Made by a program: the position numbers and the translations under genes
In this document: piece after piece, positions 3,930-53,338 of the stretch
How positions within the stretch are numbered: the stretch's first letter is position 1
How the letters are laid out: every line of letters begins with the position of its first letter
DNA from: Lytechinus variegatus
Taxonomy: Eukaryota
Reading direction: 5' to 3'
Assembly: GCF_018143015.1 (NCBI RefSeq)
Contig: NC_054742.1
Coordinates: 73,577,736-73,641,735, forward strand
Length of the DNA: 64,000 bases
Notes under the pieces: generated by a model
The model's input: only the letters and a program-made list of their open reading frames with translations
Database searches by the model: none
What the model was told of the DNA's origin: nothing

Positions 3930-4080
3930 CATGGGTGTGTTGTATCGGGATGCCTGGATGCATCGGTCAAGGTCTGGTCTCATCGTGGTGTGGAGATCAC
4001 CACTCTCTATGGTCACTCACAGAAGGTCAACAAGGTGGACATTCATATACCAGAAAGAGGAAGCAATGTTCCTGCAATAG
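3930..4080 (+). CDS. WD40-repeat protein, exon
   Basis: Acceptor cttttgcag ends at 3929 and donor GTGAGT starts at 4081. It encodes HGCVVSGCLDASVKVWSHRGVEITTLYGHSQKVNKVDIHIPERGSNVPAI, which continues the previous blade (VYSVAFS|HGCVVSG..VKVW). The exon ends in phase 1. Confidence 0.7.
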
Positions 4081-4636
4081 GTGAGTGAAATGGTTTTGTT
4101 GATGTGTTTGAAGAGCAAGTCCAAGCAAAAATTTGACTTGAACGAAAAGAGAAAAATTAAAACTCGCCTAATGCTGGAAATCACACCAAAAATCAGAATT
4201 TCAGAGCTACCAACCAGTAGGTTTGGGGTATATTTAGTACAGTTTCTTTTTCTTTCTTTTTTTACAAAATTGTAATTTATTGCGTAAAATCATCTCTATG
4301 TTTCTATTTCATAAAACTTACACAAATATGGTTATTGGATCAATGTATTTTCAAGGTGACTTGTTTTTTTTAACATCATTTTGTTTAAACCAGGGTGAGA
4401 TATACATATGTTTTAAATGTTGGGTTTTTTTCTCATCTACAAGAGCAGTGCTCATTTTAGCTTGCATGCAGCTTGAGCGCCGCTATGAGCACGCGTCACA
4501 CATTTTATTATGAAATACAGTTTTTTGGGGGAAAAATAGAGATTTTTTTTATCACTTAATACAATTTTTCATTCCCAGAAGTTGACAGGTCTGGAATTTG
4601 AGTAAGGTTGAGCTATGACTATTCAATTTCATGGAA

Positions 4637-5668
4637 TTGATGATGATGAGGAAGGTGATGATGGTGGTGGTGGTGGTGGGGTGGTGGTGATGATGGTGGT
4701 GATGCTGATGATGGTGGTGGTGGGGTTGGTGGTGGTGGATGGTGGTAATGATGGTGGTGGTGGTGGGGGTGGTGGTGGTGGTGGTGGTGATGGTGGTGAT
4801 GATGATGATGGTGGTGGTGGTGGGGGGTGGTGGTGGTGGTGGTGGTGATGATGGTGGTGGTGGGGTGGTGGTGGTGGTGGTGATGATGGTGGTGGTGGTG
4901 GTGGGGTGGTGGTGATGATGATGGTGGTGGTGGTGGTGGTGGTGGTGTGGTGGTGGGGTGTGGTGATGATGATGGTGGTGGTGGTGGGGGTGGTGGTGGT
5001 GGTGGTGGTGGTGATGATGGTGGTGGTGGTGGGGGTGGTGGTGGTGGTGGTGGTGGTGATGATGGTGGTGGTGGTGTGGTGGTGGTGGTGGTGGTGATGA
5101 TGGTGGTGGTGGGGTGGTTGTGGTGGTGATGATGGTGGTGGTGGTGGTGGGGGGGGGGTGGTGGTGATGATGATGGTGGTGGTGGTGGTGATGATGATGG
5201 TGGTGGTGGGGGGTGGTGGTGGTGGTGGTGGTGGTGATGATGGTGGTGGTGGGGGTGGTGTGGTGGTGGTGGTGGTGATGATGGTGGTGGTGGGGTGGTG
5301 GTGATGATGATGGTGGTGGTGGTGGGGGTGGTGGTGGTGTGGTGGTGGTGATGATGGTGGTGGTGGGGGTGGTGTGGTGGTGGTGATGGTGGTGGTGATG
5401 GTGGTGGTGATGGGGGTGGTGGTGATGATGATGATGGTGGTGGTGGTGGGGGTGGTGGTGTTGGTGGTGGTGATGGTGGTGATGATGATGATGGTGGTGG
5501 TGGTGGGGTGGTGGTGGTGGTGGTGGTGGTGATGATGGTGGTGGTGGTGGTGGTGGTGATGATGGTGGTGGTGGGGGTGTGGTGATGATGATGGTGGTGA
5601 TGATGATGATGGTGGTGGTGGTGGTGGTGGTGGTGATGATGGTGGTGATGATGATGAGGAGGATGACA
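4637..5668. repeat. about 1-kb (GGT)n/(GAT)n minisatellite, intronic
   Basis: There is about 1 kb of GGT/GAT trinucleotide repeats with occasional GGGG runs. It lies in the intron between the exons at 3930..4080 and 5743..5930, so the minus-strand His/Pro/Thr ORFs are artefacts. Confidence 0.9.
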
Positions 5669-5742
5669 AGATTTATGATAATTATGAAGATTAATACGAT
5701 TGTCTAAACTTAAATAACAATGGTCTCTTCTATCACTGGTAG

Positions 5743-5930
5743 ATGTCGATAGCGATGATGAGTGGGACGACACGTCTGGAGCCAACTGGTCAGATATGAT
5801 GGCAGAAGAAGAATGGAAGAATCGTCATGAGAAGAAGAAGTTGGACAAAGATGCTAATATCAACCTGGAAGAGATAATGATTGCGTCGGCCAGTGATGAT
5901 GGTACCACACAGTTATGGAAACCCCTACAG
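5743..5930 (+). CDS. WD40-repeat protein, exon (acidic insert plus WD blade)
   Basis: Acceptor tatcactggtag ends at 5742 and donor GTTAGG starts at 5931. Entering in phase 1, it reads (D)VDSDDEWDDTSGANWSDMMAEEEWKNRHEKKKLDKDANINLEEIMIASASDDGTTQLWKPLQ, ending in the WD motif SASDDGTTQLWK. Exit phase 0 restores the frame. Confidence 0.65.
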
Positions 5931-6139
5931 GTTAGGTTCTGTGAAACCATATGTCTTCAAAATGTGTTTTTTTTTAATCTTGATTGATGAGATATGTAGC
6001 CAGTTTCTGACTTTTCAGATTTATCTCTCTTGTCTTAACTTCAATTTACACTCTTTTTATATCTTCAACTATATCCCTTTATTTCCTTCCATTATATTTA
6101 TAATTCTCAAAAATTTCAGTTTCTAAGGTTCATCCCAAT

Positions 6140-6490
6140 TTCCTGATTTTTTTTTTCTCTCTTTAGTATTATTTTTTTCATTCTTCCATTTTTTCATCTT
6201 CTTCTTGTTCCCTACTTCCTATTCCTTTCTTTTTCTCCTATCTACTCCTCTTTCTAATCCTTCCTTCTCTTTCTTTTCATCCTTTTTTTCATTTTCTTTC
6301 AATCTTTTCCTCTTCCACCTTCCCTGTCTCCTGTTTCTATTCCCTCTTCTTCTTTTCCTTCACCTCCTTCCCTTATTCTTATCAAAATTCTTTTTCCCTT
6401 TGATTGTCTTTTTCCTCTTCTCTATTTACTCCTCATTTATCTTTTCCCTTTTTTTCCACCTTAATTTCTTCTTCATTCACTTTACTTATT
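6140..6490. repeat. polypyrimidine (TC-rich) low-complexity tract
   Basis: The + strand is almost entirely T/C (ttccttctctttcttttc...) over about 350 bp and is intronic. Confidence 0.85.
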
Positions 6491-7581
6491 CTGTTTACAT
6501 TGATTAAAAATCTCCTTGCTTATTGAATCTTTTTCTCCAAGGTCTCAAATTGGGCTTCTTTAGTTGGATCTGACAAGGAGAATATCATGAATTATAATTC
6601 AGGCAATACTGTGAGTCTCTGCCTTCAAAAACACATGGCAAATTATATGTGCATGCTTACATGCGCTTGCACTCCGATATTATTTTGCCTCTCCAGGCTT
6701 GACTTGGCCATATATTTTCGAACTTGCCCAATGTTGTTAACATTTCTCAGCAATTAGCTGTTCGGAACTTGAAAATCTGTGGTTTCTAAATGTTTTCTAA
6801 TTTCTGACATCGATTTGACAAAAGATTTCTGACATGACCCAACTCGAGTATCTTCAGAACATGCTCTCCAGAGCAAATTTCATGATACTTGCCTCTTATT
6901 ACCACAGCTTTTCTTTCTTGGAGCATTGTTGTACTTAGCATGTATTTATGTGTTGTATACTGACGCTTCATGTAGGTCATTTTTCTTTAACACCTTCTGG
7001 TCTTATGGAAAGGACAGGAAATGCATCAATTTTTCATGATTTTTTTTAATCTGATATAGATTTAATGGTCATATATCATCAAATCACATGTATCAGCATC
7101 ATATCATTACAGTAACATTCATTGCATGAATGTGTTTTAGTTGCAAAGTGTGAATGCTTTTTTTTGGGGGGGGTAGGGATAAAATTACACCCATTATGTT
7201 TTCTTAAGACCACCGCACACCTCTCAACTTGTCTATGACCCAATTTTAGAACAAATAGCATTTTGCTTTTTAAAAACATGAATGAATTGAATCTTTTAAG
7301 AAAACTAAGATTGAAATTTTGGATACTTGCAAGCCTTTATTTTGGAATAAAGGCTAGATATGTTTCATATCATGGTCGGTCTTACGATTTTTATGACGTT
7401 AAGTGTTCCATGTGTCAATATTTGCATCAAATATTACATTTCATTCTAAGATTGGACCGCAGACCAATCGTAAGGTTTGCTGTGGCCTCTACATGTACAT
7501 GTATATGTAAAGTGTTCTGTGTTTGTTCAGTATTTTCTGTACAATATTATTCAACCTAATGTTTCCCTCTTGACCTTGCAG

Positions 7582-7701
7582 AGTAATGAATTGACCACGC
7601 TGATTGGTCACTCAGACCGGGTGTTGAGTGTTGCTATGGCAACCAGCGGTCAGGTGGTCACTACCTCCATGGACTGCACAGTCAAGATTTGGAAGCCCCA
7701 G
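7582..7701 (+). CDS. WD40-repeat protein, exon
   Basis: Acceptor cttgaccttgcag ends at 7581 and donor GTATGT starts at 7702. It encodes SNELTTLIGHSDRVLSVAMATSGQVVTTSMDCTVKIWKPQ (GH...D.TVKIW). Phase is 0 to 0. Confidence 0.75.
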
Positions 7702-8504
7702 GTATGTTATTCCTCAAAGCCATTTTTTTGAACAAATACATGTATTTCAAGACAATCGTCAGTTACTTACTAAATGTATTCTCTGTTGATGTATTATTCA
7801 AACATTTGTGATTAGGTGGGTATTTCATTAAGCTGTTTTTTAGTTCTGAAAGAATTTAAATGCTGGTACGAGAATAACTGAATTGAATTGAGAAAGCTTA
7901 GTGTTATTTTGTGTTCAATTTTAGTTAATTACATGCTTAGAAATCATATTGAGCAGCAAAATTTCTTTTTTAATTGTTGATCCACGTTGTCAGTTGATTT
8001 CGCGTGAAATCAAACAAAAAATAATCATATTCCAATGATAAATTTAGGAAGATGGCCGGGAAAACCTATATTGTTTATTATTAACCGAATCAGACCTCTG
8101 AGCAGGGCAACTTTGATACATTGTTGCCTGCTTAGACCGGATCAAATGGCCGGTCAATAAATTTCCAATTGTTTATCCATGGGCCCAATTTATTGCCCGC
8201 TCAGGAACGTCAATGAGAAAATGCGTGGAAATGTAGCGGGCAATAAGGCAGAGTTAACATCCGGTATTCTACGTGTTTTGATACGCGTCCTTAAACCATG
8301 CAGTGGTAATACGTCACAATGTTTAACAAGTTGAGACACCGCCGGATACTGCGTCCCCAGTCCAGGGACGCGTCATTTCAACTACATCACAATGTTAAAA
8401 TTCAGTGGCCCAGTCTGCTCTACATAACAAAATAGATTCCCATTCTTAAAATCTGAAATATCTCAATTTTAAAGATTTTTGCTTTAGATGTCTTATTTGG
8501 TTAA

Positions 8505-8635
8505 TAATAGCAATATTGACTGGCCTGGGGGCGAAAGGACATATATTGCCCTCACTAAATTGATGTCACCCTCATCTGCAACTCGGGCAATATATGTTGT
8601 ATCACCCCGAGGCCAGTCAATATTGCTTTATTGTT
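8505..8635. mobile_element. small palindromic MITE (~130 bp), intronic
   Basis: The inverted repeat is taatagcaatattgactggcctgggggcgaaaggacatatattgccc ... gggcaatatatgttgtatcaccccgaggccagtcaatattgctttatt. Confidence 0.6.
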
Positions 8636-8680
8636 TTTATTTATTCTTATTATAAATCACCTTCTTTTCTTTTCGAACAG

Positions 8681-8775
8681 CTTTCTCCCGACCTCGTCCA
8701 CGTAGGAGCCCACGATGCCGAGGTATCAGCCGTTGCCATGTCAACCAAGACTAACTTTGCCGTCACTGCAAGCAG
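8681..8775 (+). CDS. WD40-repeat protein, exon
   Basis: Acceptor ttttcttttcgaacag ends at 8680 and donor GTCAGT starts at 8776. It encodes LSPDLVHVGAHDAEVSAVAMSTKTNFAVTAS(R). The exon ends in phase 2. Confidence 0.65.
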
Positions 8776-9553
8776 GTCAGTGCCCTGTTTCATAAAGCAT
8801 TGTGATCCATCACAAATTTTTTCAGCCAATCACATGTCATCATTTCACAAGCTTATAGAATTTCATGTTTTAACTTTTATTTATAATTTTTTTGTATAGC
8901 ATGGTTTGGAAAATATTGCAAATCGATGGCTTTGAAAACCATTATTCAGTGAAATAGTCTGTAACTAGTGTAACTTCATATTTTTATGGAGATTATGCCT
9001 TTACATGCTTCTGTTTTGAAGTACGTCCTTACCTTTCCCCGTAATCCCTCCATCCCTTGAATGCTGTGTATTATTACTAATAGTATTATTTTGATTATAT
9101 AATTTTTGTTATCAAGACAATAACTTCACTGTAGAATCAAATGATGTTCAATCCACTCATTCGTAAGTGTTGTGTGTCACAGTTGCTCTGAATAGCGTGG
9201 TCTCATAAAAGTGTATACAAATTACAAGGAGTGACTGAGTGGTCATTTTGTCCATTTAAATAACTTGTCCGTAGGAAAACTCGGGAACCATGAGAAGGAT
9301 CAACTGCAAACTATTCTCATAAGTGCATATTGGAATGACAATGATTTGGGGTGCAGGTGATTTAACTATACTTGGATTTCTTCCCAAATCCATTATCATT
9401 TATCATTTAAAATAAAATTCTAAAAAAAATGTATTTACATCTCATAATTCTCCAGTGCTGTTTACAATAAATTGTGGCAGCTCTTGCTTCTGTCCCTCAT
9501 TTATATATTTATCTAACATCAACTTTTTTGTTTGTGACATCAGGAATGGCAGT

Positions 9554-9625
9554 GCTTGTCTATGGAAGGTGAATGGGTCTAACAAGGGAGAAGGCCAATC
9601 AATGACACTCCTTCATTCATGGATG
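9554..9625 (+). CDS. WD40-repeat protein, exon
   Basis: Acceptor tttgtgacatcag ends at 9553 and donor GTAAGT starts at 9626. Entering in phase 2 it completes R and reads NGSACLWKVNGSNKGEGQSMTLLHSWM. Joined to the previous exon it gives AVTASRNGSACLWK, a WD blade end. Exit phase is 0. Confidence 0.65.
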
Positions 9626-10376
9626 GTAAGTAAAACAAAATATTATCCTTTCATTTACCATCTTACTGTTGTTGTTTTATCCAAAAATTACATATCTTCC
9701 AGCTGTTCCAATGAAATAGGAATATTTTTATTTTTGGTACATGTAAAGGTAAATTGCCATTTTAATCTTTTTTTTTTTTTGCTATTCTGTGTGATTTTTA
9801 TGTAGCATTGAATGGGAAATTCACGAATGTTCATAATTCTGGAAAGTTTTTAGTAATTTGTTTCCATTTCTTGGCATTCAGGATTTGCAGGTATGAGTTG
9901 ATCAGAGTTACCTTAACAGGCATGATATTCTCCTGATTGTTAATCGGATATCTGATTTTTTTTCTTTTTTCCTGTTCATAGTCAATGACCACAATGTTTT
10001 TGTGATTTCATTTTGTAATAAACGATCATGTTTTGAAAAACAAACAATTTGTTGGGGTTGAATTATTTTCGGTCGATGTATAGCTGTGAGAGATACAGTC
10101 ATATGTTTTATGAAGGGACATTAACATGAGCGGGTGAGAAGCTGGTACCATGGTTTGTGTAGAAATGCATTGTGTGTGTGCGCTCAGGGGTGTGTTGGAT
10201 TTTATTTTGGCCGAATTGTAACAATGAAGGTACGCCTCTAGGCCTCGTAGTATATATTGTCGCTTGTATTGGTACTGAATTGATTGGAATAAAATAGTTT
10301 GAATTTTCATTGAAGCACAGTCCATTATGACATGGGTTTAACTCATTCCATATTCCTCACCCTCTGTCCAAACCAG

Positions 10377-11464: not shown

Positions 11465-11632
11465 GCAAGGGAACAATCGTTTCTTGAATGTGTACTCCTT
11501 CACCTCCATGTCGAGCCCGGTGACCTGTCTCAGGTACGATGATGCTCAAGACATCCTGTACGTCGGCACGTGGAGCTCGGTTATTACCCTAAGGGGTTTC
11601 ACCTCCAATAAGATCAAACAGAATGCAAAGGG
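11465..11632 (+). CDS. WD40-repeat protein, exon
   Basis: Acceptor a long T-run then gctcag ends at 11464 and donor GTAAGT starts at 11633. Entering in phase 2 it reads (L)QGNNRFLNVYSFTSMSSPVTCLRYDDAQDILYVGTWSSVITLRGFTSNKIKQNAK. DAQDILYVGTWSS is WD-like. The exon ends in phase 2. Confidence 0.6.
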
Positions 11633-11660
11633 GTAAGTAATGCAAGGATGAAAGAATATC

Positions 11661-46764: not shown

Positions 46765-47000
46765 ATGGCTGGTCTCATATTCTTCATCTTCTCCTTCTTT
46801 TCTCCCTCTTTTCTTTCTAATTTTCTTCCTTTTCCTCCCCTCTCCCTCTTCGAATTTTTCATTCCATTCGCCATTTTCTCCTCTTCCCCCTACATTTTAT
46901 CCTTCTGTTCTTTACTCATATCCAATCTTTTCCTTTTTTCTCAATTTTCCTCTTCTTTCTCCTCAACCAATCTCTCTTTTCTCTCAGTTTTCTTTTTGTT
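46765..47000. repeat. polypyrimidine (TC-rich) low-complexity tract
   Basis: Composition is tcttcatcttctccttcttttctccctc... Confidence 0.8.
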
Positions 47001-49500: not shown

Positions 49501-49821
49501 TTATGCTGAAGGGTATGCTCCCATAATTTAATAAACACCATCTCCATCCCCTCGTGAAAAGTATTTAAAATACCAACAACAACAACAAAAACTGTCAAAC
49601 TTATTATGGAATGACATCATAGCATTCAGTATTGTGCAGGAATTCTGAGCATGATTTTTATCGAGTAACCAAGTTAAACAAGTTTAAATAGATTGTTTTC
49701 GTAGCTTTATTCTTTTACATACACACTCATAATCGAGGAATTCAGTTAGGAAGAAGAAGGCGAGACATGAATTATGGGTAATGAACAGGAGGAGGGTAAA
49801 GGAGGGTTGGTATAAAATAGG

Positions 49822-52289
49822 GGTGCGTTTATTCGACACTTTTTTACCCTAGAATCATGATTAGAATCATGATTCAAATCACGATTCTGCAGAATCACGA
49901 TTGCGTTTAGTCGAAAGTGGAAATAAACGTCTTTCAAATCACAAACATGAAACACGGAAAAAGGGGCGTTTGGAAAGACGTTTCTGTAGAATCACGAACG
50001 AAAAGGGTCGTATAAACGATATCGTGATTTGAATCATGATTCTATGACGTCATTGTGTCGTGCTTCTTCCGGGTTCGACTCAAAGGCGCGCGCAGTGTTT
50101 CGTGCAGGTTAATTTTCGTGTAGCAGATTGCCAGTGTACTAGTACCGGTATATGCCAATTGTCATGTGCATTTAGGCATTTAGGATTATCATTCTGTGTA
50201 TTGTACCCCGGGGTTGTACTGTAGCGTCATTTGTATATTTCACTCAGGGTGACCAGATTTCACAAAATGAAATACGGGACAATTGACAAACGAAGATCAA
50301 CAAAGAAGCCCACACAAAGTGTGGGCTTCTGAGAATCCATAGCATAATTTTAAGACTTTTGAAAAAAAATATAAAGAATTAGAAGGGAAGGTGAACGAAA
50401 GAATGAAGGAGAGAAAGAAAGATGATTGGGAAGGAAAGAAAATAAAGGAAAACAGAAAAAATAACAGAAAGTTAGAATAAAAGGATGAAAGAAATAATAA
50501 AAGAGATAAAAAAAGGTTTCCGTCATTCTTTGAAATGAATATAGAAAGAAAGGAAGGGAAGATTAATAAATGTCTCGCAAAATAAAGGAGACAATTAAAG
50601 GGGGAAAGGTGAGAAAAAGAAGGAGGAAAGAAAGAATGAAGGAAATAAACATGTTTCCTTCATTCTTTGAAAGAAAGAAAGAAAGAAAATAAAAATAAGG
50701 GAAAAGAATAAGAAGGGGAAAATGAAGAAAGGAATAAAGAATGGAAAGGAAGAATGAAGGGGAAGAGAACGAAAAAATAGAAAATAATGGAAGGAGAGAA
50801 AGAACGAAAAGAAACAGGAGACGAAGAGAGAAGGAAGCCAAGGTAATTATAAGGAAAGAAAGAATGAAGGAAATAAAAAAGTATATTGGATAAAGAAGGA
50901 AAGAAAGAAAAATGAACAGAGAGAGAGAGAGAAAAGAAAATGTCGAGGAAAGAAAGATAGGAAATAAAGATAGATGGAACAAAAAAGGGCAAGCAGAAAG
51001 GATAGGGTATATAATTATAAAATAAAGATAAGGGAAAAGTTCAAACTTCAAGTAAACAAAAAATCCAATCATCTAATAAAAATCATAACTTTATTTGGTG
51101 TTTTTTTAAATGTATTTTTAAAATTTTAAACATAAAATGTTTTAGAAATGAATAAAATTTCAAAGTGAAACATATTGTCAAACTTAAAAATTAGATGAAA
51201 CATCGCGGCATCGTGCACACCAAGACTCAAAACGAAAGCTGAAACAACTAGATCTATGAAAAGTCAATAACATTTTCCTCCGATTACATCTCCAAATCAT
51301 TAAACTGAGAATCCATAGTATAATTTTAAGAATTTCCCGCCGATTTTGTGATTATTTTGGTGGAAAAAACTGTAAATCATGTGAGGTGTTTGCACCATTG
51401 AGAATTTGCTTCGATCCTCCATGCCTAGCTAGTAGCCTGCCACACACAGGCAGGAGGCCAGTTCGTTTGCAATGTATTAGCAAGAGATCATCGCAGAACT
51501 TGCAAAAGTTTACAGTTATCGATTTAATTGTTGTCCCTGCTTCGTCAGCTGTTGGTTATTTAATGAAAATTCGTCACTTTTAAATGTATTAACTACATTT
51601 TGTTCAATATTCTGAAATACGGGACAATCCCGGGAAATACGGGACGTCTGGTCACTGTTTTCATCAATACTGTCTTCAAGTTCCAAAGGCACAAATTGGA
51701 CTGACGACGAACTCAGGGCTCTGCTTGTGCTTTGGGCTCAGCCTGAAGCACAAGCATCCCTTACCGGGATTCATAGAAATATAAGACGATCTACGAGTCC
51801 CTTTCAGCGGCGCTTGCGAGGGAGGGATTTCAACGGAGATGTGGCACCGCCTGTCGAGACAAAATTAACAGAATTCGTGCCCAGTACTACGGCTACCGAA
51901 CACCATTTTTGATGAACCGACAAGACTGAATACAAGTAAACAAAAACAATACGAGGTACAATACACGGAATTCTGGAAGTAAAAGATTTATTTTTCGGAA
52001 GCCGAGTTGCACTTGCACAAACGATCGCGCGTTAGCTCCGGTGGCAGCAAAAATCTAGCAGCCGACGTGAAGTTAGAAACACGCGCGAAAATGTTGACCT
52101 ATACTTCCTGGGTCAAACTGCGCACTGTGATGCGCACTGGATCGGCCCGAATTCAGGGAGAAACAGCGTTAGAAAGATGGTCGTATAAACGCTGATTCTG
52201 TCGGATCGTGATTCATGTTGCTGTTTTGAATCATGATTCAAATCGTGATTCCAATCATGATTCTGGGTTGAGGTCGCATAAACGCAGCC
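49822..52289. mobile_element. ~2.5-kb composite TIR element (nested inverted repeats, GA satellite, Myb/SANT-like ORF remnant)
   Basis: Outer TIRs are gggtgcgtttattcgac...gaatcatgattcaaatcacgattc (49822) versus gaatcatgattcaaatcgtgattccaatcatgattc...gtcgcataaacgcagcc (52289). Inner inverted pair is gtgaccagatttcacaaaatgaaatacgggac (about 50246) versus gaaatacgggacgtctggtcac (about 51633). The ORF remnant at 51664..51912 reads ...GTNWTDDELRALLVLWAQPEAQASLTGIHRNIRR..., a W-x-DDE-x-x-ALL-x-x-W pattern typical of Myb/SANT-like (MADF-type) domains. Confidence 0.5.
50370..51040. repeat. GA-rich (GAAAGA/GGAAG)n satellite inside the composite element
   Basis: About 670 bp is nearly pure purine on the + strand. 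It is flanked by direct repeats tgagaatccatagyataattttaaga at about 50328 and 51308. Confidence 0.85.
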
Positions 52290-52722
52290 TAGATGACACG
52301 ACATTTGCTCTTCCAAAATTTGCTTCTGCGACATTTGCTCCGGCTTTAATATCTCAGAAGGCATAGGGTTAGAGTTAAGATTGTAATTTAGTTTATAATT
52401 ATGAATAATGTAAAGATAAGGATTAGGCCTAGGGTTAATTTATTTTCGGAGTTTAGGTTTAATGTTAGACCCCCTGCTGAAAACCGATTACGCCAAACAT
52501 TGCTAACTCATTTTGATACCATACTCAAGTCAAGGAAGTCGGTTAGACTTCATGTAACCATACAATGTCTTAATTTGAAACCATGACTAGTGTCCGATCT
52601 GTCACCAACACTTGTCTTTTCTCACTTCTGTTTGTATTTGTGGTTCATGTGGCTTTATTCAGCCATCTACATATAGACACGTTCACCAGGTACAATGTAA
52701 GTGGCAGACATACCCATCCCAG

Positions 52723-53338
52723 GGCATGCTTAAAGGACAAGTCCACCCCAACAAAAACTTCATTTGAATAAATGTAGAAAACTTCAACAGGGGTAATACT
52801 GAAAATTTCATCAAAATCAGATTAAAAATAAGAAAATTTATGGCATTTTAAAGTTTCGCTTATTGTCAACAAAATAGTTATATGAACGAGCCAGTTACAT
52901 CCAAATGAGAGAGTTGATGACATCACTCACTCACTATTTCTTTTGTATTTTATTATATGAAATATGAAATACTTTTATTTTCTCATCATTGTCATGTGAA
53001 ATAAGGTTTCATTCCTCCCTGAACACATGGAATTCCATTATTTTAACATTTTGTGCTTCAGGCAAGGAGGTCCTAATCGTCAAATTCGTAAAAAATTGAA
53101 ATATTGTATAATTCAAACAAAAAACAAAAGAAATAGTGAGTGAGTGACATCATCGACTCTCTCATTTGGATGTAACTGGCTCGCTCATATAACTATTTTG
53201 TTGAAAATAAGCGAAACTTTGAAATGTCATAAATTTCTTATTTTCAATCTGATTTTGATGAAATTTTCAGTATTATGCTTGTTGAATTTTTCTACATTTA
53301 TTCAAAACAACATTTTTCTGAGGTGGACTTGACCTTTA
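52723..53338. mobile_element. foldback MITE family A, copy 4
   Basis: Ends are AAGGACAAGTCCACC ... GGTGGACTTGACCTT, with flanks ttA|AAGG and CCTT|TAAgg. Confidence 0.75.

Follow-up and report, generated by a model that had tools for sequence, protein, structure and literature searches.

A probable PIF/Harbinger derivative, transposase-less and Myb-encoding, interrupted by a hAT-like mini-element in the sea urchin Lytechinus variegatus

Architecture of the locus

The 64-kb stretch of Lytechinus variegatus DNA analyzed here (RefSeq assembly GCF_018143015.1, contig NC_054742.1, positions 73,577,736 to 73,641,735; henceforth termed the window) is AT-rich (ca. 36% GC), contains many microsatellites, and carries WD40-like exons near its start. 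At 49821-52289 lies a segment bounded by terminal inverted repeats (TIRs) that encloses an A/G-rich tract and the remnant of an open reading frame (ORF) for a Myb/SANT domain (Table 1). An initial annotation had interpreted this segment as one composite 2.5-kb TIR element with nested repeats. Instead, it consists of two nested, unrelated transposons: a paralogous copy, L001, lacks the inner 1.4 kb, and the ends of this inner part match a different family of MITEs (miniature inverted-repeat transposable elements). Taken as a whole, the locus is very likely a three-level nest composed of a dead, Myb-only copy of a PIF/Harbinger-type transposon, a hAT-like mini-element, and a 976-bp unit. The copies used for comparison, designated by L numbers, reside on metagenome contigs. 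No coding signal was found around the element, and no further exons nearby.

Table 1. Coordinates of the features of the nested element in the window, and related Myb-only lineages on metagenome contigs. TRF, Tandem Repeats Finder.
Feature	Position or locus	Strand	Remarks
Left target-site duplication, TAG	49818..49820	.	identical to 52290-52292
Left TIR GGGTGCGTTTATTCGAC	49821..49837	+	15/17 versus 52273-52289
Left subterminal array of the palindromic 12-mer, (T)AGAATCATGAT(TC), 3.1 copies	49850..49886	.	TRF
Inner part of left subterminal region	49903..50044	.	TIR-like motifs and 12-mer pair
Conserved block upstream of ORF	50032..50093	+	TGACGTCA (50045-50052), GGCGCGCGC (50085-50093)
Nested hAT-like non-autonomous element, 1,413 bp	50245..51657	+	absent from L001; end architecture
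Left 31-nt direct repeat CTGAGAATCCATAGCATAATTTTAAGACTTT	50329..50359	+	29/31 versus 51305-51335
A/G-rich low-complexity tract	50360..51045	+	82% purine
AT-rich unique sequence, 259 bp	51046..51304	+	completes segment between the 31-nt repeats
Right 31-nt direct repeat	51305..51335	+	29/31 versus left copy
Myb/SANT-only ORF remnant (pseudogene)	51670..52058	+	Pfam PF13837, alignment to L001 and L002, HMMER relatives
Right-subterminal conserved motif GGGTCAAACTGCGCACTG	52110..52127	+	also in L004, L008, L007, L132, L133
Right subterminal region	52180..52263	.	TIR-like GTCGTATAAACGC (52180-52192) and 12-mer array 52228-52263, 2.9 copies
Right TIR, reverse complement GGCTGCGTTTATGCGAC	52273..52289	-	15/17 versus left TIR
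Right target-site duplication, TAG	52290..52292	.	identical to left copy
Related lineage 1	L007		1,107 bp; intact 111-aa ORF, 60% amino acid identity
Related lineage 2	L004, L008		1,023 and 1,058 bp; 90% mutual identity, two loci
Related lineage 3	L132, L133, L134		1,081-1,111 bp; 6/1,081 compared columns differ, at least 3 loci

Ends and subterminal repeats of the outer element

The outer element (49821-52289; terminus GGGTGCGTTTAT) measures 1,058 bp if the insert is subtracted. A run of four Gs places its start at 49821, so that the preceding TAG (49818-49820) is duplicated directly behind the right end (52290-52292). From the 17-nt TIR match, similarity between the termini extends to a total of 67 nt at 76%. 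The left terminus GGGTGCGTTTATTCGAC recurs in L002, L007, L132, and L133, and L009 has it at its left end. The right end occurs in L001, there followed by different flanking DNA. About three units of a palindromic 12-mer, GAATCATGATTC, lie just inside each end (TRF; arrays at 49850-49886, 50021-50044, and 52228-52263). This 12-mer occurs five times in the window, all at this locus, with 0.38 occurrences expected by chance, and the same confinement is seen for the motif GCGTTTATKCGAC (five occurrences, 0.8 expected). Both the inverted termini and the self-palindromic arrays inside them had been recognized in the initial annotation and are upheld here.

The left array, a putative protein-binding site, matches 52228-52267 in inverted orientation at 85%, and the 12-mer pair at 50021-50044 is complementary to 49862-49885 in 24/24 positions. 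Between these two arrays are the TIR-like motif GCGTTTAGTCGAA (49903-49915) and an inverted GTCGTATAAACGA (50007-50019). The region 49903-50044 is kept in L001 and L002 and is 70% identical to L009 4449-4675. Further inward, 29 nt (AATCATGATTCTATGACGTCATTGTGTCG) are identical across the window copy, L001, and L002, and a GCGCGCGCC block precedes the ORF in L007, L132, and L008. This conserved arrangement of a 29-nt block containing TGACGTCA and a GCGCGCGC block upstream of the ORF may represent a promoter. Toward the other end, the motif GGGTCAAACTGCGCACTG is located ca. 170-190 bp from the right terminus in L004, L008, L007, L132, and L133.

A decayed Myb/SANT gene without transposase

The Myb domain spans approximately positions 51685-51905. 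Translation in frame 2 yields SSSKGTNWTDDELRALLVLWAQPEAQASLTGIHRN, and after a frame change the sequence goes on in frame 1 as KTIYESLSAALAREGFQRRCGTACRDKINRIRAQY. When both frames were joined, the protein matched Pfam Myb_DNA-bind_4 (PF13837) with 38.5 bits (E 1.6e-9; cut-off 27 bits); unjoined, the N-terminal part had no Pfam match and the C-terminal part scored 22.3 bits, below the cut-off. The W-x-DDE...ALL...W reading frame noted initially is present from 51685 onward, and its proposed resemblance to the Myb/SANT domains of Harbinger accessory proteins is borne out by the domain search, albeit only after frameshift repair. Alignment with L001 and L002 revealed a 2-nt insertion near 51780 that shifts the Myb frame. 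In addition, the start codon has become CTG (51670-51672; ATG in L002), and the C-terminal third of the domain is broken by indels after 51887. With its start lost, its frame shifted, and its domain end disrupted, the gene is dead and the copy inactive. A tblastn search with Harbinger DDE proteins detected no transposase remnant in the window element.

A word-index protein search with the repaired 84-aa Myb fragment, a method of low sensitivity, gave no match, and an exhaustive HMMER search returned 269 relatives, of which the closest are short unannotated ORFs on metagenome contigs. L003 (4114-6313) carries a Myb ORF that shares 58% identity with the window fragment and lies beside gypsy-type reverse transcriptase/RNase H fragments, as well as an ORF with a tyrosine-recombinase-like motif (GHDVRTHREYYRLP). 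No Harbinger TIRs are present there, and the locus was uninformative for the family; the Myb domain may thus also travel in contexts other than Harbinger TIR elements.

A recurrent family of Myb-only elements

The outer element belongs to a recurrent, mobile TIR family with a Myb-only unit of ca. 1.06 kb. L001 and L002 show 86-88% identity with the window element and share its termini at sites with different flanks; L002 is a further deletion derivative. Three further lineages (Table 1) have the terminus GGGTG[C/T]GTTTAT, measure 1,023-1,111 bp, encode a single Myb-only ORF, and share a GGGTCA(A/T)ACTGCGCA motif ca. 180 bp from the right end. The intact ORFs of L007, L132, and L008 carry precomputed PF13837 matches. 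Across all four lineages (48-60% amino acid identity), the candidate promoter, a complete Myb domain, and both ends are kept, and the ORFs measure 95-150 aa with differing C-terminal break points. L132-L135 diverge too little (6/1,081 columns) to read selection on the ORF. The occurrence of such near-identical relatives at different loci suggests that the family has been mobile.

Exact 3-bp duplications in the same register flank three of the seven complete elements, i.e., the window copy (TAG/TAG), L004 (TTG/TTG), and L008 (AAT/AAT), with a probability of ca. 3e-4 for three or more of seven. The flanks of L132 and L133 match at 2/3 positions, with TAA and TTA, respectively, on the left. A 23-mer conserved in three outer-element copies had no exact match in Joint Genome Institute (JGI) metagenomes and none in GTDB genomes. 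In L002 (ENA contig ERZ17293373 NODE_770313), positions 1-36 outside the left TIR are 91% identical, in inverted orientation, to window positions 49952-49986. The right flank of L002 does not continue this internal region, which speaks against a simple self-nested insertion; possible origins of this piece are self-targeting, some rearrangement, or a chimera from low-coverage assembly.

Assignment to PIF/Harbinger

Classical Harbinger elements target TWA (TAA/TTA), and TIRs in the PIF/Harbinger superfamily are about 14-25 bp long. The window family has short conserved TIRs of this kind (17 nt, with the same terminus in L001, L002, L007, L132, L133, and L009). In combination with the 3-bp duplication and the Myb/SANT accessory gene, these TIRs point to PIF/Harbinger as the superfamily of the outer element. 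Its relatives adjoin DDE_Tnp_4 transposase genes, and it is very probably a non-autonomous "solo-ORF" derivative that has lost the transposase. One such relative, L006, is a complete Harbinger element with a perfect 20-nt TIR pair, between which lie a DDE_Tnp_4 gene and a gene for a Myb protein of 288 aa; a 32-aa tblastn match of this protein to the window fragment has 50% identity. A Penelope-like insertion separates the two genes, and the TIRs differ from those of the window family. The left end of L009, on ENA contig ctg833094_2x_l, is closer, being 70% identical to the first 228 bp of the window element and almost the same over the first 40 nt. It is followed by a Myb ORF that a retroelement fragment breaks up, a satellite with an 88-bp period (6815-8401; 18 copies, 94% matches) that reads as a long artefactual ORF, and a DDE_Tnp_4 ORF ca. 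3.8 kb downstream of Myb. Echinoderms (Diadema, Holothuria, crinoids, and S. purpuratus) are the source of the named proteins nearest to this transposase, an indication of the type of host. L005, on contig ctg975380_2x_l of ENA ERZ26222911, combines a left end of the L004/L008 type with a Myb ORF and a DDE fragment ca. 9 kb away, and the locus ends before the right end. L130 and L131, whose DDE sequences are the nearest relatives of the transposase in L009, were rejected as autonomous partners, having neither a Myb gene nor a matching TIR nearby.

The inner element and the 976-bp unit

The inner element begins with CAGGGTGACCAGA (50245-50257) and ends with TCTGGTCACTG (51647-51657). Only GTGACCAGA is inverted between these ends, amounting to 9 nt, or 11-13 nt with CAG; alternatively, CAGGGTGACCAGA can be aligned with CAG--TGACCAGA. 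A 12-mer, GAAATACGGGAC, occurs at 50269, 51614, and 51634, always in direct orientation. L001 runs from ...gtatatttcat directly to tgttttcatcc... (window ca. 50242 to 51652), and the absence of the inner 1.4 kb from this copy identifies the segment as a later insertion. The hAT-like mini-element would have entered the 5' leader of the Myb gene, ca. 13 bp upstream of the former start codon.

A scan for the doubled 12-mer pattern matched more than 120 JGI metagenome contigs with MITEs of the same layout as the inner element: the TIR TAGGGTTGCCAAC, a single direct 12-mer ca. 10 nt inside the left TIR, and a double 12-mer just inside the right TIR. Complete MITEs measure 275-722 bp and are flanked by 8-bp duplications (10/15 match at 7/8 or better, many at one shared target), which is hAT-type behavior. 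Both the inner left end CAGGGTGACCAGA and the TAGGGTTGCCAAC of these relatives fit the hAT TIR start (C/T)A(G/A)NG. The agreement of the inner ends with the architecture of this separate MITE family, together with the uninterrupted L001, points to a nest of independent insertions. The MITEs themselves (L010-L129, e.g., Ga0126325-Ga0126334, Ga0056114, and Ga0056123; TIR TAGGGTTGCCAAC, subterminal GAAATACGGGAC) are high-copy elements, many of which share both the 8-bp target GTCACAGT and the flank gtcacagtccgtggcactctgtataaatgac and thus may sit inside, or amplify with, a larger repeat. One contig, L098 (7,924 bp), seemed to have both ends of the inner family but was rejected as a complete element, as it forms a perfect palindrome around ca. 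3960 and is most likely an assembly artefact. Other assignments of the inner segment were likewise discarded: it lacks the 5'-TC...CTRR-3' termini and A|T insertion site of Helitrons, a poly(A) or simple-repeat tail beside a duplication as in long or short interspersed nuclear elements, and, in the window, the TA duplication of Tc1/mariner elements. The left arm of the inner element also contains a perfect hairpin, GAAGCCCACAC-AAA-GTGTGGGCTTC (50305-50329).

Within the inner element, two 31-nt direct repeats bracket 945 bp that consist of the A/G-rich tract and 259 bp of AT-rich DNA. If one of the repeats is subtracted together with the DNA between them (976 bp), an inner element of 437 bp remains, within the size range of the related MITEs, and a third event is therefore the probable source of the tract. 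Most simply, the 976-bp unit is a further insertion or duplication. No poly(A) or other diagnostic terminus was found at its ends, and the AT-rich sequence at 51046-51304 has no other copy in the window or in any fetched locus. In the tract, the purine content per 50 nt varies from 64 to 94%, and the longest pure purine run is 26 nt. TRF reported short patches only (best, a 43-nt unit in 2.6 copies at 72%), and BLAST detected degenerate internal repeats with 70-79% identity.

These data revise the initial description of the interior in several respects. A second inverted pair and a pair of direct repeats around the tract had been described, and both exist in modified form. The former is limited to GTGACCAGA (9 nt, or 11-13 with CAG), whereas the 12-mer gaaatacgggac is a direct repeat in three copies; the direct repeats are longer than had been recognized (31 nt, 29/31). 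The supposed purine-only satellite of ca. 670 bp is 82% purine, without a regular tandem array, and its designation as a strong candidate for triplex or H-DNA formation is weakened, as no pure purine run exceeds 26 nt. The proposal of a non-autonomous derivative of a two-gene transposon holds insofar as a TIR-bounded Myb-only unit without transposase was found. The accompanying suggestion that this transposon captured or generated the satellite does not hold, since L001 continues from ca. 50242 to 51652 without the inner 1.4 kb.

Further pyrimidine-rich tracts, i.e., A/G-rich on the opposite strand, occur at 6051-6550 and 46787-46851 in the window. Of these, 6184-6307 is 72% similar to 50674-50782 in reverse orientation, which indicates that such tracts recur in the genome independently of the element. 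A perfect hairpin, AAAGAATGAAGGAAA...TTTCCTTCATTCTTT, is present at 50631-50668 inside the A/G-rich tract; an Rfam search over the region returned only sub-threshold chance matches, including miRNA-like ones at this hairpin.

Other features of the window

Pieces of ORFs resembling WD40 repeats (e.g., ...ATASNDSTIKLWDMKTGKVKSHLKGHQAAVYSVAFS) lie on the plus strand at 829-1146, 2158-2475, 8594-8899, and 9455-9805, far upstream of the element, and probably represent host-gene exons. At 4000-6000 and 11500-12250 there are long simple-repeat arrays, G-rich (GC skew up to +0.82) and of triplet type, whose translation gives artefactual ORFs of 200-390 aa rich in His/Pro/Thr. A 109-nt stretch close behind the element's right end (52730-52838) is 70% similar to an unrelated part of L009 (2297-2404), which suggests another repeat family common to the window genome and the metagenome host.

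Alternative explanations

The assignment of the outer element to PIF/Harbinger has to be weighed against several observations. Its TAG duplication departs from the TWA target, as do TTG (L004) and AAT (L008), albeit in a small sample, and four of the seven complete relatives have imperfect 3-bp flanks. In L009, no right TIR was detected, and retroelement fragments and the satellite separate the Myb gene from a DDE gene. The latter shares only 27% identity with its counterpart in L006 and may be part of a different element. No recovered locus is an autonomous element that has exactly this TIR at each end and carries the two genes in between, and that the Myb protein binds the 12-mers is inferred by analogy. 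The lack of a transposase between matching TIRs of the family and the non-canonical TAG would also suit another superfamily with ca. 3-bp duplications (CACTA/EnSpm, Zator, or Academ) or ISL2EU, the Myb ORF then being captured or host-derived. We consider this origin very unlikely, as the TIRs do not start with CACTA, a Myb_DNA-bind_4 ORF is kept inside the TIRs in four divergent lineages, homologous Myb proteins adjoin DDE_Tnp_4 genes in L006, L009, and L005, and the left flanks of L132 (TAA) and L133 (TTA) conform to TWA. In another reading, the Myb frame derives from a host Myb/SANT gene (ZSCAN29-like or MSANTD-like), as a degenerated exon situated by chance close to inverted repeats of other origin. 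In its favor, fish and reptile proteins with several domains, annotated as "ZSCAN29-like" host proteins, account for many of the HMMER matches. The nearest relatives (49-94% identity), however, are without exception short ORFs inside TIR-bounded 1-kb elements, neither other exons nor coding signal lie nearby, and the joint presence of ORF and TIRs in L001, L002, L007, L004, L008, L132, and L133 effectively refutes a host exon, to which we assign next to no credence.

For the interior, the placement of every part between one TIR pair and one TAG/TAG duplication would agree with a single composite 2.5-kb transposon, of which the GA tract and the nested inverted repeats would be integral components that it had captured or generated and that moved along with it; the 88-bp satellite in L009 (18 copies) shows that internal arrays do occur in the group. 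Such a composite is highly improbable given that L001 lacks the whole inner 1.4 kb, all related lineages measure 1.0-1.1 kb without an inner segment, and the inner ends fit an independent MITE family. The assignment of the inner element to the hAT-like MITEs also has counterevidence. These MITEs resemble the window only over ca. 35 nt plus the overall architecture, and no long, hAT transposase-like ORF was found beside the motif in the JGI contigs, which are short and were analyzed without a Pfam scan. A clean 8-bp duplication is missing from the window copy: the flanking 8-mers ATTTCACT/TTTTCATC agree in 5/8 positions, both are already present in the "empty" site of L001, and the right TIR is 2 nt short. 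As causes of the missing duplication, a secondary deletion, repair-mediated copying, and an excision footprint in L001 are indistinguishable. The same irregularities would be expected had the inner 1.4 kb arisen by a non-standard route, either as break-repair filler from a hAT-like MITE (1-4 nt junction homology) or as an ancestral segment whose excision left a footprint in L001. The junctions share only t/tcac, and the L001 site, atttcatt-g-ttttcatc, with its similar tandem 8-mers, is reminiscent of a hAT excision footprint. Yet these two 8-mers differ at 3/8 positions, more than the ca. 13% divergence between the copies, a single 11-nt deletion at the right junction after normal insertion explains the pattern equally, and only one comparison copy is available at this site. 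We regard a non-standard route as unlikely.

Comparison with known systems and proposed mode of action

The locus is ordinary transposon debris, and the family is a new instance of an already published type of Myb-only, or solo-ORF, Harbinger derivative. The closest precedent is provided by the solo-ORF variants of Harbinger-Snek, of which S. purpuratus relatives encode either protein alone (Galbraith et al. 2021, PMC8437027). Both are multi-copy, TIR-bounded PIF/Harbinger elements of marine animals, including echinoids, that have kept the Myb-like gene and lost the transposase, and mobilization in trans is presumed for both. They differ, compared by description, in the retained gene (here an ORF of ca. 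95-150 aa with the Myb domain alone, there an accessory protein of ca. 300 aa), and in that the window copy is a pseudogene. In Caenorhabditis inopinata, the MADF-only PIF/Harbinger derivatives termed Harbinger-1M_cIno (bioRxiv 10.64898/2026.05.26.728016) similarly keep only the DNA-binding module and produce a 3-bp duplication. They have become more numerous relative to copies with DDE, and DDE and DNA-binding functions are split over separate elements. In contrast to the window family, they carry MADF instead of Myb_DNA-bind_4, have other TIRs, and reside in another host phylum; their activity was shown by a new mutation, whereas we infer mobility from near-identical copies of the relatives.

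In zebrafish, a 9-bp subterminal motif is bound by the Myb-like protein of Harbinger3_DR, through which the transposase is brought in (PMC9710019; Sinzelle et al. 2008). That element shares the two-component system, short repeated subterminal motifs, and a 3-bp duplication with the window family, differing in that it is autonomous with both genes and in its motifs, in place of which the window family has the 12-mer palindrome and GCGTTTATNCGAC as putative binding sites. If the window family worked like Harbinger3_DR, its Myb protein would attach to the subterminal repeats and attract the transposase; the latter would cut at the TIRs and paste the element with a 3-bp duplication. Solo-ORF elements would move only when a related autonomous element provides the DDE_Tnp_4 transposase in trans. 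The window copy retains extra TIR-like GCGTTTATNCGAC motifs and GAATCATGATTC arrays at both ends.

Like hAT MITEs, the inner element has a TIR starting with CAGGG, a size of ca. 440 bp without the extra unit, short subterminal repeats, and 8-bp duplications in its relatives. It departs from them in that its subterminal 12-mers are direct rather than inverted, the window copy has no clean duplication, and no hAT transposase is linked.

KP elements of the Drosophila P family are internally deleted transposons that encode a DNA-binding N-terminus only and act as repressors. The window family resembles them as an internally deleted transposon that keeps the DNA-binding part and still spreads. It belongs to another superfamily, and the retained gene is that of an accessory protein rather than a transposase. 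A KP-like repressor function of the Myb-only protein is pure speculation. More generally, the persistence of a ca. 1.0-1.1-kb Myb-only unit in four lineages could reflect selection for a helper acting in trans or for a KP-like competitor damping transposition, which we consider quite unlikely. As a helper, the truncated Myb protein would mark its own ends for a transposase encoded elsewhere; as a competitor, it would occupy the subterminal 12-mers and dampen transposition of the family.

On its own, the locus is of little importance, representing an ordinary nest of dead transposons, and Myb-only Harbinger derivatives have already been reported from sea urchins, sea kraits, and nematodes. What is notable in this family is only the shortness of the retained ORF and the recurring ca. 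1.06-kb layout across four lineages. The idea of the A/G-rich tract as a captured satellite or strong H-DNA former is corrected, and clean boundaries are now available for annotating the three repeat layers at the locus. Beyond this practical value, the ca. 1.06-kb Myb-only family with its conserved subterminal motifs is a possible test case for end recognition by Harbinger accessory proteins.

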